Below, piece after piece: positions 3,617 through 57,919 of a DNA stretch of 64,000 nt. This stretch comes from an uncultured Gammaproteobacteria bacterium (lineage in GTDB: Bacteria > Patescibacteriota > Microgenomatia > Levybacterales > UBA12049): assembly GCA_964391315.1 (NCBI GenBank), contig CAYMJR010000001.1, positions 69,949-133,948 on the forward strand, written 5' to 3'. The position numbers and the translations under genes were made by a program. The number at the start of each line of letters is the position of its first letter. Position 1 is the first letter of the stretch. The notes beneath the pieces are model-generated. The model was given only the letters and a program-made list of their open reading frames with translations. It made no database searches and was not told the origin of the DNA.

Positions 3617-4761
3617 AGTTTTTTCAAAATATGTATCGCTGCAACGGCGCCGCTTCCTCCGACATTATGTGTTAATCCAATCTTTGCATTTTTTACTTGT
3701 CTTTTTCCTGCAGTTCCCCGCAATTGTTCAACGATTTCAACAACTTGTTTGATTCCTGTTGCTCCAACTGGATGACCACAGGCTTTAAGTCCGCCAGAAG
3801 TATTTGTCACAACACTTTTACTGCCAAGAGTCATTTTCCCATCTGCAATATCTTTCGCACCATTGCCTCTTTTGGAGAATCCCAAATCTTCATTTGCTAT
3901 AACTTCTGCTATCGAAAAACAGTCATGAATTTCTGCCACGTCAATATCTGCTGGTGTAATATTTGCTTTTTTATATGCTCTTTTTGAAGCACTTACCACA
4001 GCACCAAGTGTTGTAAATGAATCACGATCAGAAAGCGCCAACGTATCTGTTCCCACTTCACTTGCAATAAAGGAAACTCTTTTTTGTTTTGCTTTTGGCT
4101 GTTCACTTGAAATGATAATTGCCGATGCTCCATCTGAAACTGGTGAACATTCAAGAAGTCTTAATGGATCTGCAATCTTAGTGCTTTTCAAAATTGTTTC
4201 AAGAGGAATTGCTTTTTGAAATTGCGCTTTTGGATTAAGACTTCCATGATAATGATTTTTTACTGATACGTGAGCGAGTAATTCTTCTGAAATATTGTAT
4301 TGCTCTATATATGATTGCGCCATCAGTGCATAAATTCCAGGAAATGTTGCACCTGATAAACGTTCTTCATCTGATCCTGCTGCCATAAGTCCTGAAGTAA
4401 TTTCATCAGGCTGACAATCAGTCATTTTTTCAACACCTAATACCATCACATTTGTATATTGTCCGGCAAGAACACTGTTGATTGCTGCGTGTAATGCCAA
4501 TCCTCCTGATGCACATGCTCCTTCGATATGAAATGCTGGAATATGGGTCCCCAATTCTTCAGCAAAAAATGATCCTAAATTTGCCTGATTGCCCAAAAGA
4601 TCAGCAAGCATATTCCCAACAAACAATGCATCTATTTGTTTTGCTGTTTTTTTTGCATCCGAAAGTGCGCCGATCATCGCTTCTCGCGCAAGAGCCCGAG
4701 GAGATAATTTCCATAATTCACCAAATTGTGTTGTTGCAATTCCTAAAACTGAAATATTCAT
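3613..4761 (-). CDS. Acetyl-CoA acetyltransferase (thiolase), archaeal-type
   Basis: 382 aa. Active-site context EGACASGG, plus C-terminal GLKACGHPVGATG and NVGGSG thiolase motifs. Confidence 0.85.
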   Translation of the reverse strand: MNISVLGIATTQFGELWKLSPRALAREAMIGALSDAKKTAKQIDALFVGNMLADLLGNQANLGSFFAEELGTHIPAFHIEGACASGGLALHAAINSVLAGQYTNVMVLGVEKMTDCQPDEITSGLMAAGSDEERLSGATFPGIYALMAQSYIEQYNISEELLAHVSVKNHYHGSLNPKAQFQKAIPLETILKSTKIADPLRLLECSPVSDGASAIIISSEQPKAKQKRVSFIASEVGTDTLALSDRDSFTTLGAVVSASKRAYKKANITPADIDVAEIHDCFSIAEVIANEDLGFSKRGNGAKDIADGKMTLGSKSVVTNTSGGLKACGHPVGATGIKQVVEIVEQLRGTAGKRQVKNAKIGLTHNVGGSGAVAAIHILKKL

Positions 4762-19452: not shown

Positions 19453-21132
19453 TTATCGTAAACGTTTGAGGACTTCATCAAAAGAAAGCAATTCAGTTTC
19501 AGACTTTGCTCGCTCTTTCCATTCGATTTTGTCTCCTGTTTTTTGAGAAATAACCAACCGGACAGGAATACCAATCAAATCTGCATCTGCAAATTTTGCA
19601 CCGGCACCGACATCTTCACGGTCGTCAAATAAAACTTCAATACCAGCTTCTTCCAATTTTTTATGGATTTCTTCTGCCTTTTCGTTCTCACGAAGTGAAA
19701 CAAGATGGACATCATAGGGCGCAATAACTTTCGGCCACGTAATTCCTTTTTCATCATGATATTGTTCAACAACAGTTGTCAGTGTCCGCGCAAGACCAAA
19801 TCCATAGCAACCCATGTAGTATGGTTGTTGTTTGCCGCTCTCGTCAGTAAACATCGCATCTTTCATACGGGTTGAATAATGGAATCCTAGTTGGAAAATA
19901 TTTCCAACTTCAATGCCACGTTTTTCAATAAGAGGCTGTCCATTTTCTGCAATATATCCAGCTTTTGCAAGTGCAATATCATAAAATTCAGATGGCTCTT
20001 CGAGGTCACGACCGAAATTAACATTGATCGAATGATAATTTGTTTTGTTAGCACCCATCTCAAAATTTTTTCTTCCTTTCAAAGAAATATCCATAAAGAT
20101 TCTGACCTCTTTTGGTAAATTAAGGAGTCCTGCGTAACCAACTTCTGCTCCTGTTACTCGTTTTACTGTTTCTGCAGATGCTAGCTGCAATCGATGTACT
20201 TTTGCTACATGCATTAATTTTGTCTCATTAATATCATAACCTCCCTGTACTGCTGCAGCGATAACGTTGCCATTTTCATCTTCAAAAAGAATTGTTTTTG
20301 TTGTCTTTTCAACTGGAATATTTAAAAACTTTGCTAATTCTTCAACTCCGATAATGCCTACCCCTTCAACGTCTTCTCTTGGTTTTTCATTTTCCGTTTC
20401 CTGAGTTTCTCCTCTTTTGAACTTAGTAACTTCTTCATGAGCAGCATATGAGCCATCCTCAGTTGTAAAAAACTTTGATTCTCCTGCTTCGTGTTCGACA
20501 ACAAACTCATGACAATAGTCTCCACCAATATAGCCATTATCCGATTCAACAACAATTGCCTTAAGACCTAAACGTTCACAAATCTTAGCGTAGGTATTCC
20601 ACATGCTTTTATATTCTTTTTTGAAATCTTCTTCTGTTGCATGGAAAGAGTATGCATCTTTCATGACGAATTCTCGCAAACGTAACAAACCACCCCGGGC
20701 ACGCATTTCATCACGGAATTTTGTAGAAAATTGATAGAGATTGAATGGCAAATCTTTGTAACTCAGTTGGAATTTCCGTACCAAATCAACAAGCATTTCC
20801 TCAGCAGTTCCACCAAGAACAAACTCAAAATCATTGCGGTCTTTAATACTCATCAACTCAAATCCGACAGAGCTGGTACGGTTGGTTTCTTCCCAAAGAG
20901 ATTTAGGATGTAATGTTGGGGTGATAATTTCCTGACCACCTGCGCGGTCCATTTCTTCTTTGACAACTTTTCTAATCTTATCTTGCACGCGGATACCAAG
21001 TGGCAATAAATAGTATCGTCCTGCTGTACTTTCGCGGATAAAACCTGCTTGATAAAGCAATTTATGTGATGCAAGAGATGCATCTTTTGGCGTATCTTTA
21101 ATTGTTTTTCCAAATAATTTCGAATATTTCAT
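19453..21132 (-). CDS. proS: Proline--tRNA ligase
   Basis: 559 aa. Class II motifs (FRDEMRARGGLLRLREF, GCYGFGLARTL), an editing-domain insertion and a C-terminal anticodon-binding region. Confidence 0.95.
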   Translation of the reverse strand: MKYSKLFGKTIKDTPKDASLASHKLLYQAGFIRESTAGRYYLLPLGIRVQDKIRKVVKEEMDRAGGQEIITPTLHPKSLWEETNRTSSVGFELMSIKDRNDFEFVLGGTAEEMLVDLVRKFQLSYKDLPFNLYQFSTKFRDEMRARGGLLRLREFVMKDAYSFHATEEDFKKEYKSMWNTYAKICERLGLKAIVVESDNGYIGGDYCHEFVVEHEAGESKFFTTEDGSYAAHEEVTKFKRGETQETENEKPREDVEGVGIIGVEELAKFLNIPVEKTTKTILFEDENGNVIAAAVQGGYDINETKLMHVAKVHRLQLASAETVKRVTGAEVGYAGLLNLPKEVRIFMDISLKGRKNFEMGANKTNYHSINVNFGRDLEEPSEFYDIALAKAGYIAENGQPLIEKRGIEVGNIFQLGFHYSTRMKDAMFTDESGKQQPYYMGCYGFGLARTLTTVVEQYHDEKGITWPKVIAPYDVHLVSLRENEKAEEIHKKLEEAGIEVLFDDREDVGAGAKFADADLIGIPVRLVISQKTGDKIEWKERAKSETELLSFDEVLKRLR

Positions 21133-21153: not shown

Positions 21154-22176
21154 TTACTCGATTGCTGAGTATAAATTTTTTGGATCTTTCAAAACAGGAA
21201 TCATATCTAGATCTTTCCCAACGGCATATTTTTCCGCGAGTTCATAGACAAGTCTGAGAATCGAATAATCTTCCAAAGCAATACCAACAGAATCAAATAA
21301 TGTTATTTCTCGACTATTTCTTCGTCCAACTTTTTTGCCGCTAATCACTTCTGATAATTCCGCAGCAACTGCTTTCTCTGCTTCTTTCCGCGTAAATCTC
21401 TGAATTTCTCCTTCAACAAATGATTGTTCAAAATACTCGACCATAATTCGTGACCTTCTAACAAGTTCAAAATCCAATTCAGTTTTGCCGACAGTGTCTC
21501 CGCCAAGGCCATTAATATGAACACCCTCTTTTATCCACTCATTTTTGACAACATTTGCATGCATTTTTGCAGCAATACAGACAGTAACAATATCTGCACC
21601 TCTCACTGTTTCCTCAGCATTGTTACATGGAACAAGTTTTAAAGGAGTATTTTTTAAATTCTTTTCAAACTTCATCATCGCCTTCTCATCAATGTCAAAA
21701 TATCGCACTTCTGTAATATCACGAACTAATTGTAACGCTCTGATCTGAAATTCACTTTGTGCTCCTGTCCCAATGATTGCTACAACATGCGAATTCTTTC
21801 TTGCCATAAGATCTGTCGCCAACGCAGCTGTCGCAGCTGTACGAAGCGCTGTCAGAATCGTCATCTCGCTATACAACAATGGATAACCAGTATCAATTCG
21901 TGATAACTGTCCTGTTGCCACAACTGTTAATTCTCCTTTTTTTGTATTTGCAGGATGGCAGTTCACATATTTATAGGTGTAATATTGCTCATTATCGCAA
22001 ATCGGCATGAGTTCCAAAACACCTCCAGGAACATGCATACAAGGACGAGGCATTTTGTTGAACTGATCGAAACGATTAAAATCTCTTTTTAGTGCATTCA
22101 TTAAATCACGCAAAAATGCGTTCAATCCGTGACGCTTTAAAAGTTTTGTTACTGATGCAACTGTCATTATTTTCAT
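21154..22176 (-). CDS. Ornithine cyclodeaminase / mu-crystallin family protein
   Basis: 340 aa. Rossmann segment VAIIGTGAQSEFQ and family-typical TALRTAATAALAT. 21 nt upstream of proS. Confidence 0.8.
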   Translation of the reverse strand: MKIMTVASVTKLLKRHGLNAFLRDLMNALKRDFNRFDQFNKMPRPCMHVPGGVLELMPICDNEQYYTYKYVNCHPANTKKGELTVVATGQLSRIDTGYPLLYSEMTILTALRTAATAALATDLMARKNSHVVAIIGTGAQSEFQIRALQLVRDITEVRYFDIDEKAMMKFEKNLKNTPLKLVPCNNAEETVRGADIVTVCIAAKMHANVVKNEWIKEGVHINGLGGDTVGKTELDFELVRRSRIMVEYFEQSFVEGEIQRFTRKEAEKAVAAELSEVISGKKVGRRNSREITLFDSVGIALEDYSILRLVYELAEKYAVGKDLDMIPVLKDPKNLYSAIE

Positions 22177-22191
22177 AGTTTATTTTCCATT

Positions 22192-22470
22192 AAAAAAGCC
22201 CTTGTAAATCACCAAGAAAAACTTGGAAACTTACAAGGGCGTTTGATCGCTGTACCACCTTGCTTCTCCCGACTGAGTCAGGACTCTTTGTAAATGCTTT
22301 GTCGAAACAACACATTCTGGATGGATTTTACGGTGTCCTTCCGTACTGCTTATCACAGTCTACGCCCTTCTCAACAACTGTAACTTTTGTCCTGAGTTTG
22401 CCGAAGAATTGTCTGGTAGGAATCCAGACTTTTCACCTAACCAAAAATCGGTGAACGCTTTGTATCAATT
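22192..22470 (-). promoter_or_regulatory. T-box riboswitch leader with antiterminator/terminator switch
   Basis: Minus-strand RNA carries the T-box sequence AGCAAGGUGGUACAGCG. Antiterminator: CAAGG-[UGGUACA bulge]-GCG-AUCAAA-CGC-CCUUG (22262-22234). Competing terminator: GCCCUUGUAA (22240-22231) pairs with UUACAAGGGC (22207-22198), then U6. Stem III-like hairpin CCUGAC-UCA-GUCGGG lies just upstream. Confidence 0.85.
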
Positions 22471-22476
22471 AACCGC

Positions 22477-22505
22477 AGTATACAGAAACCACTAAGTATT
22501 GTCAA
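22477..22505 (-). promoter_or_regulatory. Promoter of the T-box leader (TTGACA-N17-TATACT)
   Basis: Minus strand: -35 at 22505-22500, overlapping the gnd stop codon. -10 at 22482-22477. Confidence 0.6.
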
Positions 22506-54869: not shown

Positions 54870-55665
54870 ATCGCAGTAAGAACTATTCTGCTCCCCACTG
54901 GACGTGCGGATTTCCCGCATCCAGCGAGTCTCTTATAAAATCCTCTTTGAGAAGTCTAATCTTCCCAATGCCATCGGAAGTAAGATGCTGTTTGTTTAAC
55001 ATTAATTCTGCTACTTTACAAAATAATGCAAAACTAAATTTTTTCTTTGCTTGTAAAGGATACTTCTGAAAAAAAGGTATAACTTTTGTTGTGATATCTT
55101 TTAAGTTTGAGACTTTATATTTACAATGGGGTCTCCACTTTTTATATCTCTCATAGTTGAGGTAATAAATATTACCACAACTAAGCGTTTCTTTTACTCT
55201 TTCCAGAATTTCCTTATCATCTTCTCGTAATTCAATTTCAAAGATGAGTCTTACTTCAAGCAAACGATTATTGTTATGGTTGTTAAAAGTAATACTAAAA
55301 CAACCTTCACCATCTACTAAACCGACTAAATAATAAGGATTTAATTTTGAGTTCATCCCTTCTCCTAATATTATTATACATAATACTAAGATACTATGGA
55401 ATTTGCTGACTTCCTCTAGCCTATTATTGTTCTGACGCATAGAGGATCTCCTTGGGTCACGCAAAAAACAATTTCAAACATCCTAAAAAGCTTTTTCAGG
55501 GCTCTTCCTCTTAGTACACATAAGAGTCGAGCTGCTTTGTAATTTTAGGCTACTCTTCGTTACATCGAACCCTTCAGACTTTCTCTTACGAGCTAAGTCC
55601 TGTTCTTCAACTACATGAGTGGATTTTCACCACTTTGTTTTTTACGCTGCCAAGCGCATTTAATT
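54870..55665 (-). mobile_element. 796-nt insertion in 16S between TGTACA and CACCGCCCGTC (about E. coli 1396/1397), carrying a LAGLIDADG gene
   Basis: Flanking exon sequences rejoin to the universal TGTACACACCGCCCGTC. The insert starts AAUUAAAUGCG and ends CUUACUGCGAU. Confidence 0.8.
54883..55356 (-). CDS. LAGLIDADG homing endonuclease (single-motif, about 157 aa)
   Basis: ATG at 55356 is preceded by AGGAGAAGGG. MNSKLNPYYLVGLVDGEGCFSI carries the LAGLIDADG motif. Lies entirely inside the insertion. Confidence 0.85.
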   Translation of the reverse strand: MNSKLNPYYLVGLVDGEGCFSITFNNHNNNRLLEVRLIFEIELREDDKEILERVKETLSCGNIYYLNYERYKKWRPHCKYKVSNLKDITTKVIPFFQKYPLQAKKKFSFALFCKVAELMLNKQHLTSDGIGKIRLLKEDFIRDSLDAGNPHVQWGAE

Positions 55666-55981
55666 TGTACAAGACCCGAGAACGTATTCACCGCGGCCTT
55701 CTGATCCGCGATTACTACTGATTCCGACTTCATGGAGTCGGGTTGCAGACTCCAATCTGAACTGAGGCGAAATTTCTGAGATTAGCTTGCCGTCACCGGC
55801 TTGCAGCTCATTGTTCTTCGCCATTGTAGGGTGTGTGTTACCCAAGGTATAAGGGACGTGCTGACTTGACGTCTTCCGCTCCTTCCTTCCCAGTAAAACT
55901 GGGACCGTTTCTAATGAATATGTAACATTAGACACGGGTTGCGCTCGTTTCCCCACTTAAGGGAACACCTCCGAATCGTTT

Positions 55982-56796
55982 GATAATACAAACGAACTTA
56001 GACTATACCTTTATCCTCTCATTGAGTAGGATACTGACGTGTTATGGAACATTATATGAATAATTTTCCATCTCTGCTGTTATGCAGAAGTCGTTACGGG
56101 GTCAAAAATTTTATACTGAAATGTTGAAAGAATATATGGTCTTATTAACGAAAAGAAAGTTTCAATACTTTTTTTCTTAATTAATAATTTTGAATCATTT
56201 TTGAAAGAGCATTTTATATCAAACTCATCTTCAAGTCTCTTCTGAAGAAATAAAATATCTTCTCTTGAAAATCCATCAGTAGCAATAATACATTTATGGT
56301 CACTAAAACAACCATCATCCATGTACCAAATTGCTAAAACTAATGGTGTAAGTTGAATATCTTTGGGAATAATCTTTTTGTTGTCGAAATAGAATTTCTC
56401 TCTCCAAGATGAAAAATATTGACGAGTCCAAAACCGATAAGAAGTATATGTTTGAGAAAAACGTTTATCAAAACGTTCAACTTTCGATACATTCTTATAT
56501 GAAATTGAACCTAATTCTTGGTGTTTCCAAAAAAGATATTCTTTCTGATTACTACTCTGTTCAAATTGAATCTGACCTCTTTTTGTTATATATGCATCGC
56601 CAAGAAGTGAACCTATTAAGATTTCTTCTTGATGATTTGTTACAAAAAGTTTTTGATTCTTTCGAGCTCTCAGTTGCATAAAACTTCGACTTCCCTCGGT
56701 ATTACAACAGTATACCAAAATACACTTTTGCTTCACCGATATGAGTCAGTTATACATCCCGATATTACTATCGGGAGCCGCGAGACATTTTTGTTC
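55982..56796 (-). mobile_element. 815-nt insertion in 16S (about E. coli 1078/1079), group-I-intron-like boundaries, carrying a LAGLIDADG gene
   Basis: The 5' exon ends ...CGUGCCGU, with U at -1. The insert ends ...AACGAUUCG, with a terminal G. The spliced product has the same length as E. coli across CGUGUUGUGAAAUGUUGGG. GNRA hairpin CCCGAUA-GUAA-UAUCGGG near the 5' end. Confidence 0.75.
56080..56736 (-). CDS. LAGLIDADG homing endonuclease (double-motif)
   Basis: Motifs ILIGSLLGDAYI and LAIWYMDDGCF. The track start is a GTG at 56736; an alternative ATG lies at 56679. Lies entirely inside the insertion. Confidence 0.85.
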   Translation of the reverse strand: MKQKCILVYCCNTEGSRSFMQLRARKNQKLFVTNHQEEILIGSLLGDAYITKRGQIQFEQSSNQKEYLFWKHQELGSISYKNVSKVERFDKRFSQTYTSYRFWTRQYFSSWREKFYFDNKKIIPKDIQLTPLVLAIWYMDDGCFSDHKCIIATDGFSREDILFLQKRLEDEFDIKCSFKNDSKLLIKKKSIETFFSLIRPYILSTFQYKIFDPVTTSA

Positions 56797-56940
56797 ACGG
56801 CACGAGCTGACGACAGCCATGCATCACCTGTGTTACCATCCTTGCGGATTGCCCCTTATTTCTAAAGGGCTGTACGGTAGCATGTCAAACCTTGGTAAGG
56901 TGTTTCGCTTCGTCTCGAATTAAACCACACGCTCCACCAG

Positions 56941-57000
<60 letters not shown>

Positions 57001-57919
57001 TCCGCTTAATGCGTTAGCTTGGACCCCTGCAAGCAAGCTTGCAAGAGCCAGCGGACATCGTTTACGGCTAGGACTACACAGGTATCTAATCTGTTTCGCT
57101 ACCCTAGCTTTCGTGCCTCAGCGTCAGGAAAAGTACAGAAGCTTGCCTTCGCCCTTGGTGTTCCAGTTAATATCAACGCATTTCACTGCTACACTAACTG
57201 TTCCAGCTTCCCAACCAATCCTCAATTCCATGAGTATCCTCGCCACTCCCAAGGGTAAGCCTTGGTCTTTAAGCAAAGACTTTATGGAACGCCTACGCAC
57301 ACTTTACGCCCAATGAATCCGGATAATGCTTGCTCCCTACGTATTACCGAGACTTCTGGCACGTAGTTAGTAGGAGCTTATTCTCCAAGCTGTGAACGGC
57401 TTGGTAAAAGGAGTTTACAACCCGAAGGCCTTCATCCTCCACGCGGCGTCGCTGCGTCAGACTTTCGTCCATTGCGCAATATTCCCAGTTGCTGCCATCC
57501 GTAGATGTACTGCCCGTGTCTCAGTGCAGTTGTGGCTGATCGACCTCTCAGTCCAGCTACCCGTCATTGCCTTGGTGGGCCTTTACCCCGCCAACTAGCT
57601 GATAGGACGCAGGCTCCCCCCTTGGCGGTCCGTTAAGACCTTTACTCTTACGAGAACTATGGAGAATTACCCCCTCTTTCGAGGGGCTATGCTCCACCTA
57701 GGGATAGATTCCTACGCGTTACTCACCCGTCTGCCGCTGACTTGTATTGCTACTCATCCGCTCGACTTGCATGCTTAAGGCACGCCGCCAGCATTCATCC
57801 TGAACCAGGATCAAATTCTCAAAAAAATTTGAGAGGTACCATCGCTGTGATGATACTTCTGATTTCGGATTTTTTTTATTCTGATTGCTCAGAGTTAAAT
57901 AGGTAAACCCGAAAAAATT

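Follow-up and report, generated by a model that had tools for sequence, protein, structure and literature searches.

What governs the expression of the ornithine cyclodeaminase (OCD) gene ocd and the prolyl-tRNA synthetase (ProRS) gene proS in a 64,000-nt stretch of contig CAYMJR010000001.1 (assembly GCA_964391315.1; the whole stretch is hereafter called the window), and can a T-box switch attenuate transcription there with an ultrashort Stem I? A preliminary description of this locus had placed a promoter, a leader of ~290 nt, an antiterminator and a terminator ahead of the two genes and had called the whole a T-box riboswitch, probably specific for proline. We found all of these parts where the description had put them, the promoter, leader, antiterminator and terminator occupying minus-strand positions 22505-22192 upstream of ocd and proS, and we consider it very likely that the leader is a functional proline-specific T-box that regulates the ocd-proS operon through attenuation of transcription. 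Element coordinates in the window refer to the minus strand unless stated, energies are those of isolated folds, and z-scores were taken against shuffled sequences. The sigma-70-like promoter (22477-22505) consists of TTGACA at 22505-22500, a 17-nt spacer and TATACT at 22482-22477; it matches the consensus at 11 of 12 positions and was the top site within the 2.5 kb scanned. A gnd-like open reading frame (ORF) ends at 22502, so that its TGA stop falls within the -35 hexamer. Sites of the type TTGACA-N16-18-TAnnnT were also seen upstream of the leader in 19 relatives of this locus.

The 3' part of the leader holds two structures that compete for the same strand. The antiterminator CAAGG-UGGUACA-GCG-AUCAAA-CGC-CCUUG (22234-22262) is built from helices A1 (CAAGG/CCUUG) and A2 (GCG/CGC), and on its 5' side the T-box sequence AGCAAGGUGGUACAGCG (22264-22248) carries a 7-nt bulge starting with UGGN, namely UGGUACA at 22257-22251, whose UGGU is complementary to the tRNA 3'-ACCA. 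Folded alone, this structure reaches -5.3 kcal/mol. The intrinsic terminator (22192-22240) is a 13+5-bp hairpin at 22240-22198 with the arms GCCCUUGUAAGUU...AAUUUACAAGGGC, followed by U6 at 22197-22192, and folds at -27.6 kcal/mol (z = -7.3; 0 of 200 shuffles equal), with 15 nt between the U-tract and the ATG at 22176. It overlaps the 3' strand of the antiterminator by 7 nt (22240-22234), so that the two are mutually exclusive, and a weak antiterminator set against a strong terminator is the arrangement required of a ligand-dependent switch. Upstream of A1 lies Stem III (22263-22288), with the stem UCCUGAC-UCA-GUCGGGA at 22283-22267 and the flanks AAGAG (22288-22284) and GAAG (22266-22263), which fit the RRRxG...AA purine motif as defined in PMC7583486. 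The closing pair of helix A2 in the window is G-C and not the G.U wobble that acts as a steric sensor of the 3'-aminoacyl group; across the family this pair is G-C in 10 leaders, A-U in 7 and G.U in 1, with the 3' pyrimidine retained.

The check proposed in the preliminary description, a search with the Rfam T-box model RF00230, gave a borderline outcome: a match is present, of 30.1 bits, and it stays below the gathering score of 93. Its E-values, 6e-5 for a 521-nt region and 0.0075 for the whole window, speak for more than a chance match. Stem III and the T-box sequence contribute most of the score, and the model places its Stem I on 22402-22340, which is wrong. At the gathering threshold there was no match in the window nor in any of the 20 relatives tested. 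Taken alone, the RF00230 test therefore leaves the T-box call suggestive, not established.

The call was weighed further against related leaders. Homologs of the OCD protein number in the thousands (60-76% identity), and relatives of the locus were gathered as 89 loci (given L numbers here) from one genome scan and one metagenome scan; ~45 of these loci, amounting to 35 distinct leaders, carry GGUGGUA 70-200 nt upstream of the ocd start, and the bulge begins with UGGU in every leader. The closest relative, L009, has an OCD of 76% identity in the same M50 peptidase-G6PD-ocd-proS neighbourhood, and its compact leader, whose decoding module lies at 3744-3816, reads AAAGCGUU-UGA-GUUUGG-CUUCCUA-CCAAAC-GAUGCUG-ACUGC-GCUAA-GCAGU-ACGG-AAGGACA-CCGU-AAAA... 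The whole decoding domain fits within 72 nt in such compact relatives, with small extensions only in L031 and L048. A 72-nt covariance model of this 5' domain, seeded with eight compact leaders and excluding the window, matches 38 loci including the window, where the E-value is 5e-6 for Stem II/IIA and 0.07 for Stem I (local match at 22409-22430).

In the 5'-domain alignment, 96.8% of cells are paired, compared with 21-37% when the partners are slid, and none of 500 shuffles reaches as high; compensatory changes occur at 14 of 18 pairs, with all six Stem I pairs and all five Stem II pairs among them. These covariation figures are generous, as the alignment was model-fitted and the sequences are related, and the raw sequences display the same compensations directly. 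For the antiterminator (18 relatives), 98.1% of cells are paired against 27-49% in slid controls, with compensatory changes at five of nine pairs. The IIA/B pseudoknot was assessed by swapping loops and tails between family members: the summed complementarity of each IIA loop with its own tail is 102, versus 76 +/- 4 with the tails of other members, and 0 of 5000 permutations was as high (examples of IIB pairs are CCCAA/UUGGG, CCUAA/UUAGG, CUUAA/UUAAG, GUCA/UGAC and GGAU/AUCC). Under strict criteria, 28 of the 35 distinct leaders have a competing terminator that draws on the 3' strand of A1 and runs into U5-8. A search of 423 kb with a discriminator-only model returned no T-box other than those before ocd or genes that accompany it. 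The antiterminator, terminator, Stem I, Stem II and IIA/B are thus conserved and covarying in ~35 homologous leaders, which bears out the T-box call.

In the window, the decoding domain starts with the conserved AAAGCGUU (22454-22461), which in relatives is the 5' strand of a basal helix (the C-stem of a kink-turn, K-turn) and pairs with GCU after Stem I, two of the three pairs of this helix 1 covarying. Its 3' partner in the window is degenerate (CGUAG, about 22363-22359), and the putative pairing there is weak. Compact relatives have AGC(G)-NNN-GA...(G/A)A-GCU at the K-turn site; in the window the site reads AAAA...AA, a hairpin is inserted, and the basal helix has 2-3 bp. This extra hairpin, P0 (UUCACC-GAUUUUUGGUUA-GGUGAA, 22432-22455, -6.1 kcal/mol), occupies the position of the K-turn bulge of compact relatives and is shared with compensatory changes by L020 (CAUC/GAUG) and L019 (CAUCU/AGAUG), the window having CACC/GGUG.

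Stem I itself is the ultrashort hairpin GUCUGG-AUUCCUA-CCAGAC (22411-22429), with a 6-bp stem and a 7-nt loop (-8.7 kcal/mol, z = -3.4) that presents the specifier CCU at 22420-22418 followed by the purine A at 22417. The preliminary description had failed to identify a canonical Stem I, and a long Stem I with S-turn specifier loop, AG bulge and distal loop (the IDTM, a motif of two interdigitated T-loops) is indeed absent from the leader; Stem I is not missing, however, but is this short hairpin. Between Stem I and Stem II lies a lineage-variable inserted hairpin, UUCUUC...GAAGGG (22363-22408), which folds no better than shuffles (z = -0.4), is missing from L009, L019, L020, L001 and L002, and has shorter forms in L042, L064, L011, L048, L025 and L017. 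On comparison of the leaders, the two extra stretches of the window are best read as family features and not as a concealed long Stem I.

Stem II (ACUGU-GAUAA-GCAGU, 22345-22359) is a 5-bp hairpin with the purine-rich pentaloop GAUAA. Its loop is GAUGA or GAUAA in most relatives, the stem is extended with an internal loop in L068, L047, L033, L011 and L064, and some relatives have GAUAC...GGUAA internal loops; no embedded S-turn or 5-purine string is recognisable in Stem II of the window. The Stem IIA/B pseudoknot follows at 22319-22344, with IIA as ACGG-AAGGACA-CCGU at 22344-22330 and IIB formed by GGA (22338-22336) with UCC (22321-22319); this tail directly precedes a conserved AGAAUG, and the F-box-like ACGG-N7-CCGUAA is conserved. 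Next comes hairpin X (AAUG-UGUUG-UUU-CGAC-AAAG-CAUU, 22293-22316), a family-specific, conserved element that is near-identical in L009, L019, L020 and L042 and has the form GYGUGUCG-GNRA-CGGAGCRC in most other relatives. A side observation concerns its 3' flank, AUUUACAA (22289-22296), which is complementary to UUGUAAGU (22229-22236) in the 5' arm of the terminator over 8 bp with one G.U, as is likewise the case in L009, L019 and L042; this pairing may be due to chance in A/U-rich sequence or may be an extra anti-terminator contact.

The loop of Stem I bears on the identity of the tRNA. The hairpin has 4-6 bp in every leader and is capped by a 7-nt loop of the form N-N-(U/C)-C-C-(U/C/A)-R, in which positions 4-5 are invariant, position 6 is U, C or A, and position 7 is a purine; the loops observed include CUUCCUA, CAUCCUA, UUUCCCG, UAUCCCG, UACCCCG, UUUCCUG, UUCCCAG, UACCCAG and AAUCCUA, with AUUCCUA in the window. 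Only the frame at positions 4-6 varies synonymously (CCU/CCC/CCA, proline in every relative), and the specifier is therefore taken to be proline. The other loop frames (UUC, UCC and CUA; positions 3-5 and 5-7) were rejected because the amino acid changes between relatives. The specifier, with a purine after it, agrees with the amino acid of the genes under control, ProRS following ocd in about 20 distinct related loci.

The preliminary description had put a proline specifier in the terminal loop of a truncated Stem I, which the comparison confirmed, and its doubt about an alternative GGC (Gly) specifier proved justified. That context, GAGAAGGGCG at 22372-22363, was rejected as it belongs to the 3' arm of the lineage-variable insert, which is absent in the compact L009; the AGC specifier implied by Rfam was also rejected, lying inside non-conserved inserted sequence. 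An intermediate form occurs in L031 (AGUA-AGC-GCAA-GCU-GAA-CCC-G), where a textbook S-turn specifier loop is capped by a tiny hairpin, a form that, judged by its sequence, links the stub Stem I to the canonical design.

As far as the relatives show, the 3' end of the tRNA points the same way. UGGU predicts A as discriminator base (A73), as the preliminary description had reasoned, and the two tRNA-Pro genes that adjoin related loci (L038, anticodon UGG; L068, anticodon CGG) both end in ...CCG-A-CCA, i.e. A73; these two genes belong to relatives and none comes from the genome of the window, whose own tRNA genes within the stretch are tRNA-Ile and tRNA-Cys only. The positions of the two genes are observations in their own right. 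In L038 the tRNA-Pro(UGG) gene (626-701) sits downstream of the T-box terminator and ahead of the ocd start codon, an arrangement in which the switch would seem to govern the transcription of a gene encoding a ligand of the kind it senses. In L068, tRNA-Pro(CGG) is at 2006-2081, just upstream of the leader.

As the core parts of a T-box are all present (specifier codon with purine, Stem II, IIA/B, Stem III, A1/A2 with the UGGN bulge, and terminator), the leader is taken as a proline T-box and, on the grounds of mechanism and core anatomy, is counted in the T-box superfamily. As it has neither the long Stem I and IDTM of class I nor the sequestrator of class II, it is set apart as a variant.

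What was observed comprises the sequence elements with their covariation, the pattern of codons, the genes present and the structures that compete; from these we infer tRNA binding, charge sensing and readthrough. Transcription would start ~7 nt after the -10 box, near 22470, and the nascent leader would fold into a compact decoding module made of the 6-bp Stem I displaying CCU and then A, the 5-bp Stem II and the IIA/B pseudoknot. The anticodon of tRNA-Pro would pair with CCU, and Stem III with A1/A2 would form the discriminator downstream. The 3'-ACCA end (including A73) of an uncharged tRNA would then pair with UGGU in the bulge and stabilise the weak antiterminator, upon which RNA polymerase would read through into ocd, for the conversion of ornithine to proline, and into proS. 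With prolylated tRNA, the antiterminator would be left unstabilised, the stronger terminator would form, and transcription would stop at U6.

Several observations weigh against this reading. The kinetic argument of the field holds that transcriptional T-boxes need the IDTM (PMC7583486), and the RF00230 score is only a third of the gathering score. The copy in the window is the most derived of its family, with two inserted hairpins, a non-canonical K-turn (AA faces AA, and the basal helix has just 2-3 pairs) and a IIB pairing of only 3 bp that is assigned by homology with L009, L019, L020 and L042. Helix A2 closes with G-C instead of the G.U steric sensor, and the bulge ends in ACA, not ACC. 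On the side of the ligand, the anticodons of L038 and L068 (UGG and CGG) have no Watson-Crick match to the third base of their own specifiers (CCC and CCU), and the cognate tRNA-Pro(GGG/AGG) of this genome, with GGG as the expected ligand, was not seen.

Some of these features could result from decay. The leader might be a non-responsive T-box relic in which the discriminator and terminator persist and tRNA capture is inefficient, so that it acts as a constitutive, leaky attenuator. The 5'-domain score of the window is the weakest of the family (33.8 bits, in a split match), the window has the two insertions, AA/AA instead of the GA motif, and a G-C pair where A2 would close with G.U, it has lost an inner hairpin and U-tract that its closest relatives carry in Stem III, and one family member (L013) is without any discriminator. 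However, all base-paired core elements and the CCU-A loop are intact, the recurrence of P0 with compensatory changes in L019 and L020 argues for selection, and an unrelieved terminator of -27.6 kcal/mol before the essential proS would be costly, no promoter-like site having been found between terminator and proS. We regard a relic as improbable.

Mainly translational control, by sequestration of the Shine-Dalgarno sequence with the hairpin and U-tract being incidental, appears less probable still. Ultrashort Stem I elements have hitherto been tied to translational T-boxes, and in nine relatives the U-tract abuts the ATG and the sole Shine-Dalgarno-like sequence (AGGG/GAGG) lies inside the terminator 3' arm; in the window, on the other hand, the Shine-Dalgarno-like GGAAAA (22188-22183) is downstream of the hairpin and unsequestered, and a GC-rich stem followed by U5-8 has been kept in 28 of the 35 leaders. 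Dual control by termination and Shine-Dalgarno sequestration is plausible in some relatives, not in the window. A conventional T-box with a long Stem I and its specifier at about 22402-22340, as RF00230 would have it (AGC, Ser-like, after GAU-A, or GGC, Gly), is very hard to credit and appears largely refuted by the comparison, for although cmscan sets Stem I on CAGGAC...ACAGUUG...GACUGUGAUAAGCAGUACGG and the minimum-free-energy fold of the whole leader likewise pairs ACAGU with ACUGU, the segment is the insertion that L009, L019, L020, L001 and L002 lack and that varies elsewhere, it folds no better than shuffles, the 3' half of the alleged stem consists of Stem II and IIA, each with covariation of its own, and a Ser or Gly specifier misfits both UGGU and the proline genes (tRNA-Ser has G73 and tRNA-Gly U73).

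Alongside the proline-specific attenuator that we favour for the window, the related leaders display additional elements. In about 20 of them, Stem III is long and bears at its tip a GC-rich, covarying hairpin with U5-10 behind it, a terminator- or pause-like signal located upstream of the T-box bulge (L002, L009 at 3870-3900, L018-L021, L025, L028-L030, L037, L039, L041, L042, L047, L048, L053, L055 and L064), and this inner hairpin, which is absent from the window, occurs with nine different stem sequences, a U-run following every one of them. A programmed pause is a possible role, or it could serve as a first checkpoint of tRNA identity upstream of the 3'-end sensor. Complementarity between hairpin X and the inner hairpin was only weakly above permuted controls (21/3000), and no claim is made for it. 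A different layout is seen in L013 (724-895), where a proline decoding domain, hairpin X and a hairpin with U-tract stand directly before the ribosome-binding site and ATG of ocd with no T-box bulge or antiterminator; this is either a decayed T-box or an upstream module able to regulate alone, and the layout hints that the module may do so. Hairpin X (22316-22293 in the window) could provide a new contact to the tRNA or a tertiary contact. It is conceivable, if rather doubtful, that the leaders of the Candidate Phyla Radiation (CPR) make up a distinct T-box class that captures tRNA co-transcriptionally without elbow docking and relies instead on family-specific devices, for which hairpin X and the inner hairpin are candidates.

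The regulated genes are well defined. The ocd gene, with its Shine-Dalgarno-like UGGAAAA at 22189-22183 (21154-22189 in all, minus strand; ATG at 22176), encodes a 340-aa ornithine cyclodeaminase (NCBIfam equivalog NF005762, 426 bits versus a cutoff of 350); an exact look-up of the 340-aa protein gave no match, and the database copy (P0001) starts three codons later than the 340-aa ORF of the window. The proS gene (19453-21132, minus strand) encodes a bacterial-type ProRS with editing domain (NF006625, 613 bits versus 558) and follows after a gap of 21 nt, and no terminator-like site was found between ocd and proS. The invariant proline specifier is in turn independent evidence that this clade of ocd makes proline.

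Other loci have further genes in or near the operon. L028 (1059-2500) carries two proline T-boxes in series, the first before a 247-aa DDAH/amidinotransferase-like gene (PF19420) and the second before ocd, and in L021 (1847-2500) a GNAT acetyltransferase gene lies between the T-box and ocd. The presence of GNAT and DDAH/amidinotransferase-like genes under the switch suggests an arginine/ornithine-to-proline regulon, and the DDAH/amidinotransferase-like gene, seen under the same switch in one relative, suggests together with the invariant proline specifier such a route in hosts otherwise poor in amino-acid biosynthesis. In L042 (1426-1908), the ProRS is 94% identical to that of the window over 161 aa and the OCD just 69%; the best OCD match anywhere is 76%, with ProRS homologs up to 86%. 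Exchange of ocd is one possible cause, much faster evolution than that of its operon partner another. In L001 (2476-4257; Levyibacteriota), ocd is followed by a 110-aa protein with a tRNA-binding domain (PF01588) and a 411-aa ProRS-like protein without editing domain, which stands in place of the full-length 559-aa ProRS.

Most of the homologs of ProRS and OCD that bear a name (67-79% identity) come from Levyibacteriota, Daviesbacteria, "Patescibacteria group", Saccharimonadales and Gottesmanbacteria. Within 54870-57818 (minus strand) the window also contains a 16S rRNA gene, which the bacterial model matched over positions 9-873 with weak fragments to ~1214; no 16S 3' end was detected by this model in the window. 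Downstream of the 16S match, two ORFs for LAGLIDADG homing endonucleases occur at 56080-56736 and at 54883-55464, and group II intron signals below threshold at 55356-55441 and at 54870-54929, after which come tRNA-Cys and tRNA-Ile. A fragmented 16S gene with LAGLIDADG insertions is a hallmark of CPR genomes. The host was placed by these insertions and by the named homologs.

How, then, does this leader compare with known T-boxes? It is like class I (RF00230) in its T-box sequence, 7-nt UGGN bulge, A1/A2, Stem III purines and mutually exclusive intrinsic terminator, in the IIA/B pseudoknot with CCGU(A/U)A, in a specifier codon followed by a purine, in a specifier for the amino acid that the controlled genes concern, and in a regulon that joins an aminoacyl-tRNA synthetase gene to a biosynthetic gene. 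Proline T-boxes are known from Firmicutes, for example those of proBA/proI in Bacillus subtilis. Unlike class I, the leader of the window has no S-turn specifier internal loop, AG bulge or IDTM and presents its codon in a 7-nt terminal loop, its Stem II is cut to a 5-bp hairpin with pentaloop, an extra hairpin interrupts or takes the place of its K-turn, A2 closes with G-C, and the model score is 30 bits versus 93; the host belongs to the CPR/Patescibacteria, not the Firmicutes. We saw no mention of ocd as a T-box target in the literature that could be searched, and a full-text search found no publication on T-boxes in Patescibacteria, the Candidate Phyla Radiation or Saccharibacteria, many subscription papers lying beyond its reach.

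An ultrashort Stem I has been described for translational ileS T-boxes of Actinobacteria (Sherwood et al. 2015, cited in a review; structures 6UFG and 6UFM, PMC7583486). The leader resembles these class II switches in a Stem I truncated just above the specifier without IDTM, in a decoding module formed by short Stem I, Stem II and IIA/B, and in the same discriminator core. It differs from them in that its expression platform is an intrinsic terminator with U6 and not a Shine-Dalgarno sequestrator, its specifier is proline and not isoleucine, the phylum and the regulated genes are different, and its Stem II is far shorter than the elongated one of class II, in which an embedded S-turn and a 5-purine string clamp the codon-anticodon duplex. 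A long Stem I with IDTM is held to be needed by transcriptional T-boxes for fast tRNA binding and to be dispensable only in translational ones (PMC7583486, PMC11297988); a 2024 paper again ties a short Stem I to translational control, and the class II model of TBDB has been applied to Actinobacteria and truncated class I matches only.

The leader belongs to a large unannotated CPR group that appears to terminate transcription without a tRNA-elbow docking arm. A terminator-type family with a stub Stem I is a natural exception to the stated rule and a test of the kinetic argument of the field, and its ~72-nt decoding module offers a minimal unit for engineering. It also extends the range of T-boxes to the CPR/Patescibacteria, and since the Rfam threshold misses the whole group, riboswitch surveys of such genomes yield too low a count of T-boxes. 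Set beside class I and class II, the proline T-box with a stub Stem I introduces no new principle; it is a clear natural exception, widespread and unannotated.

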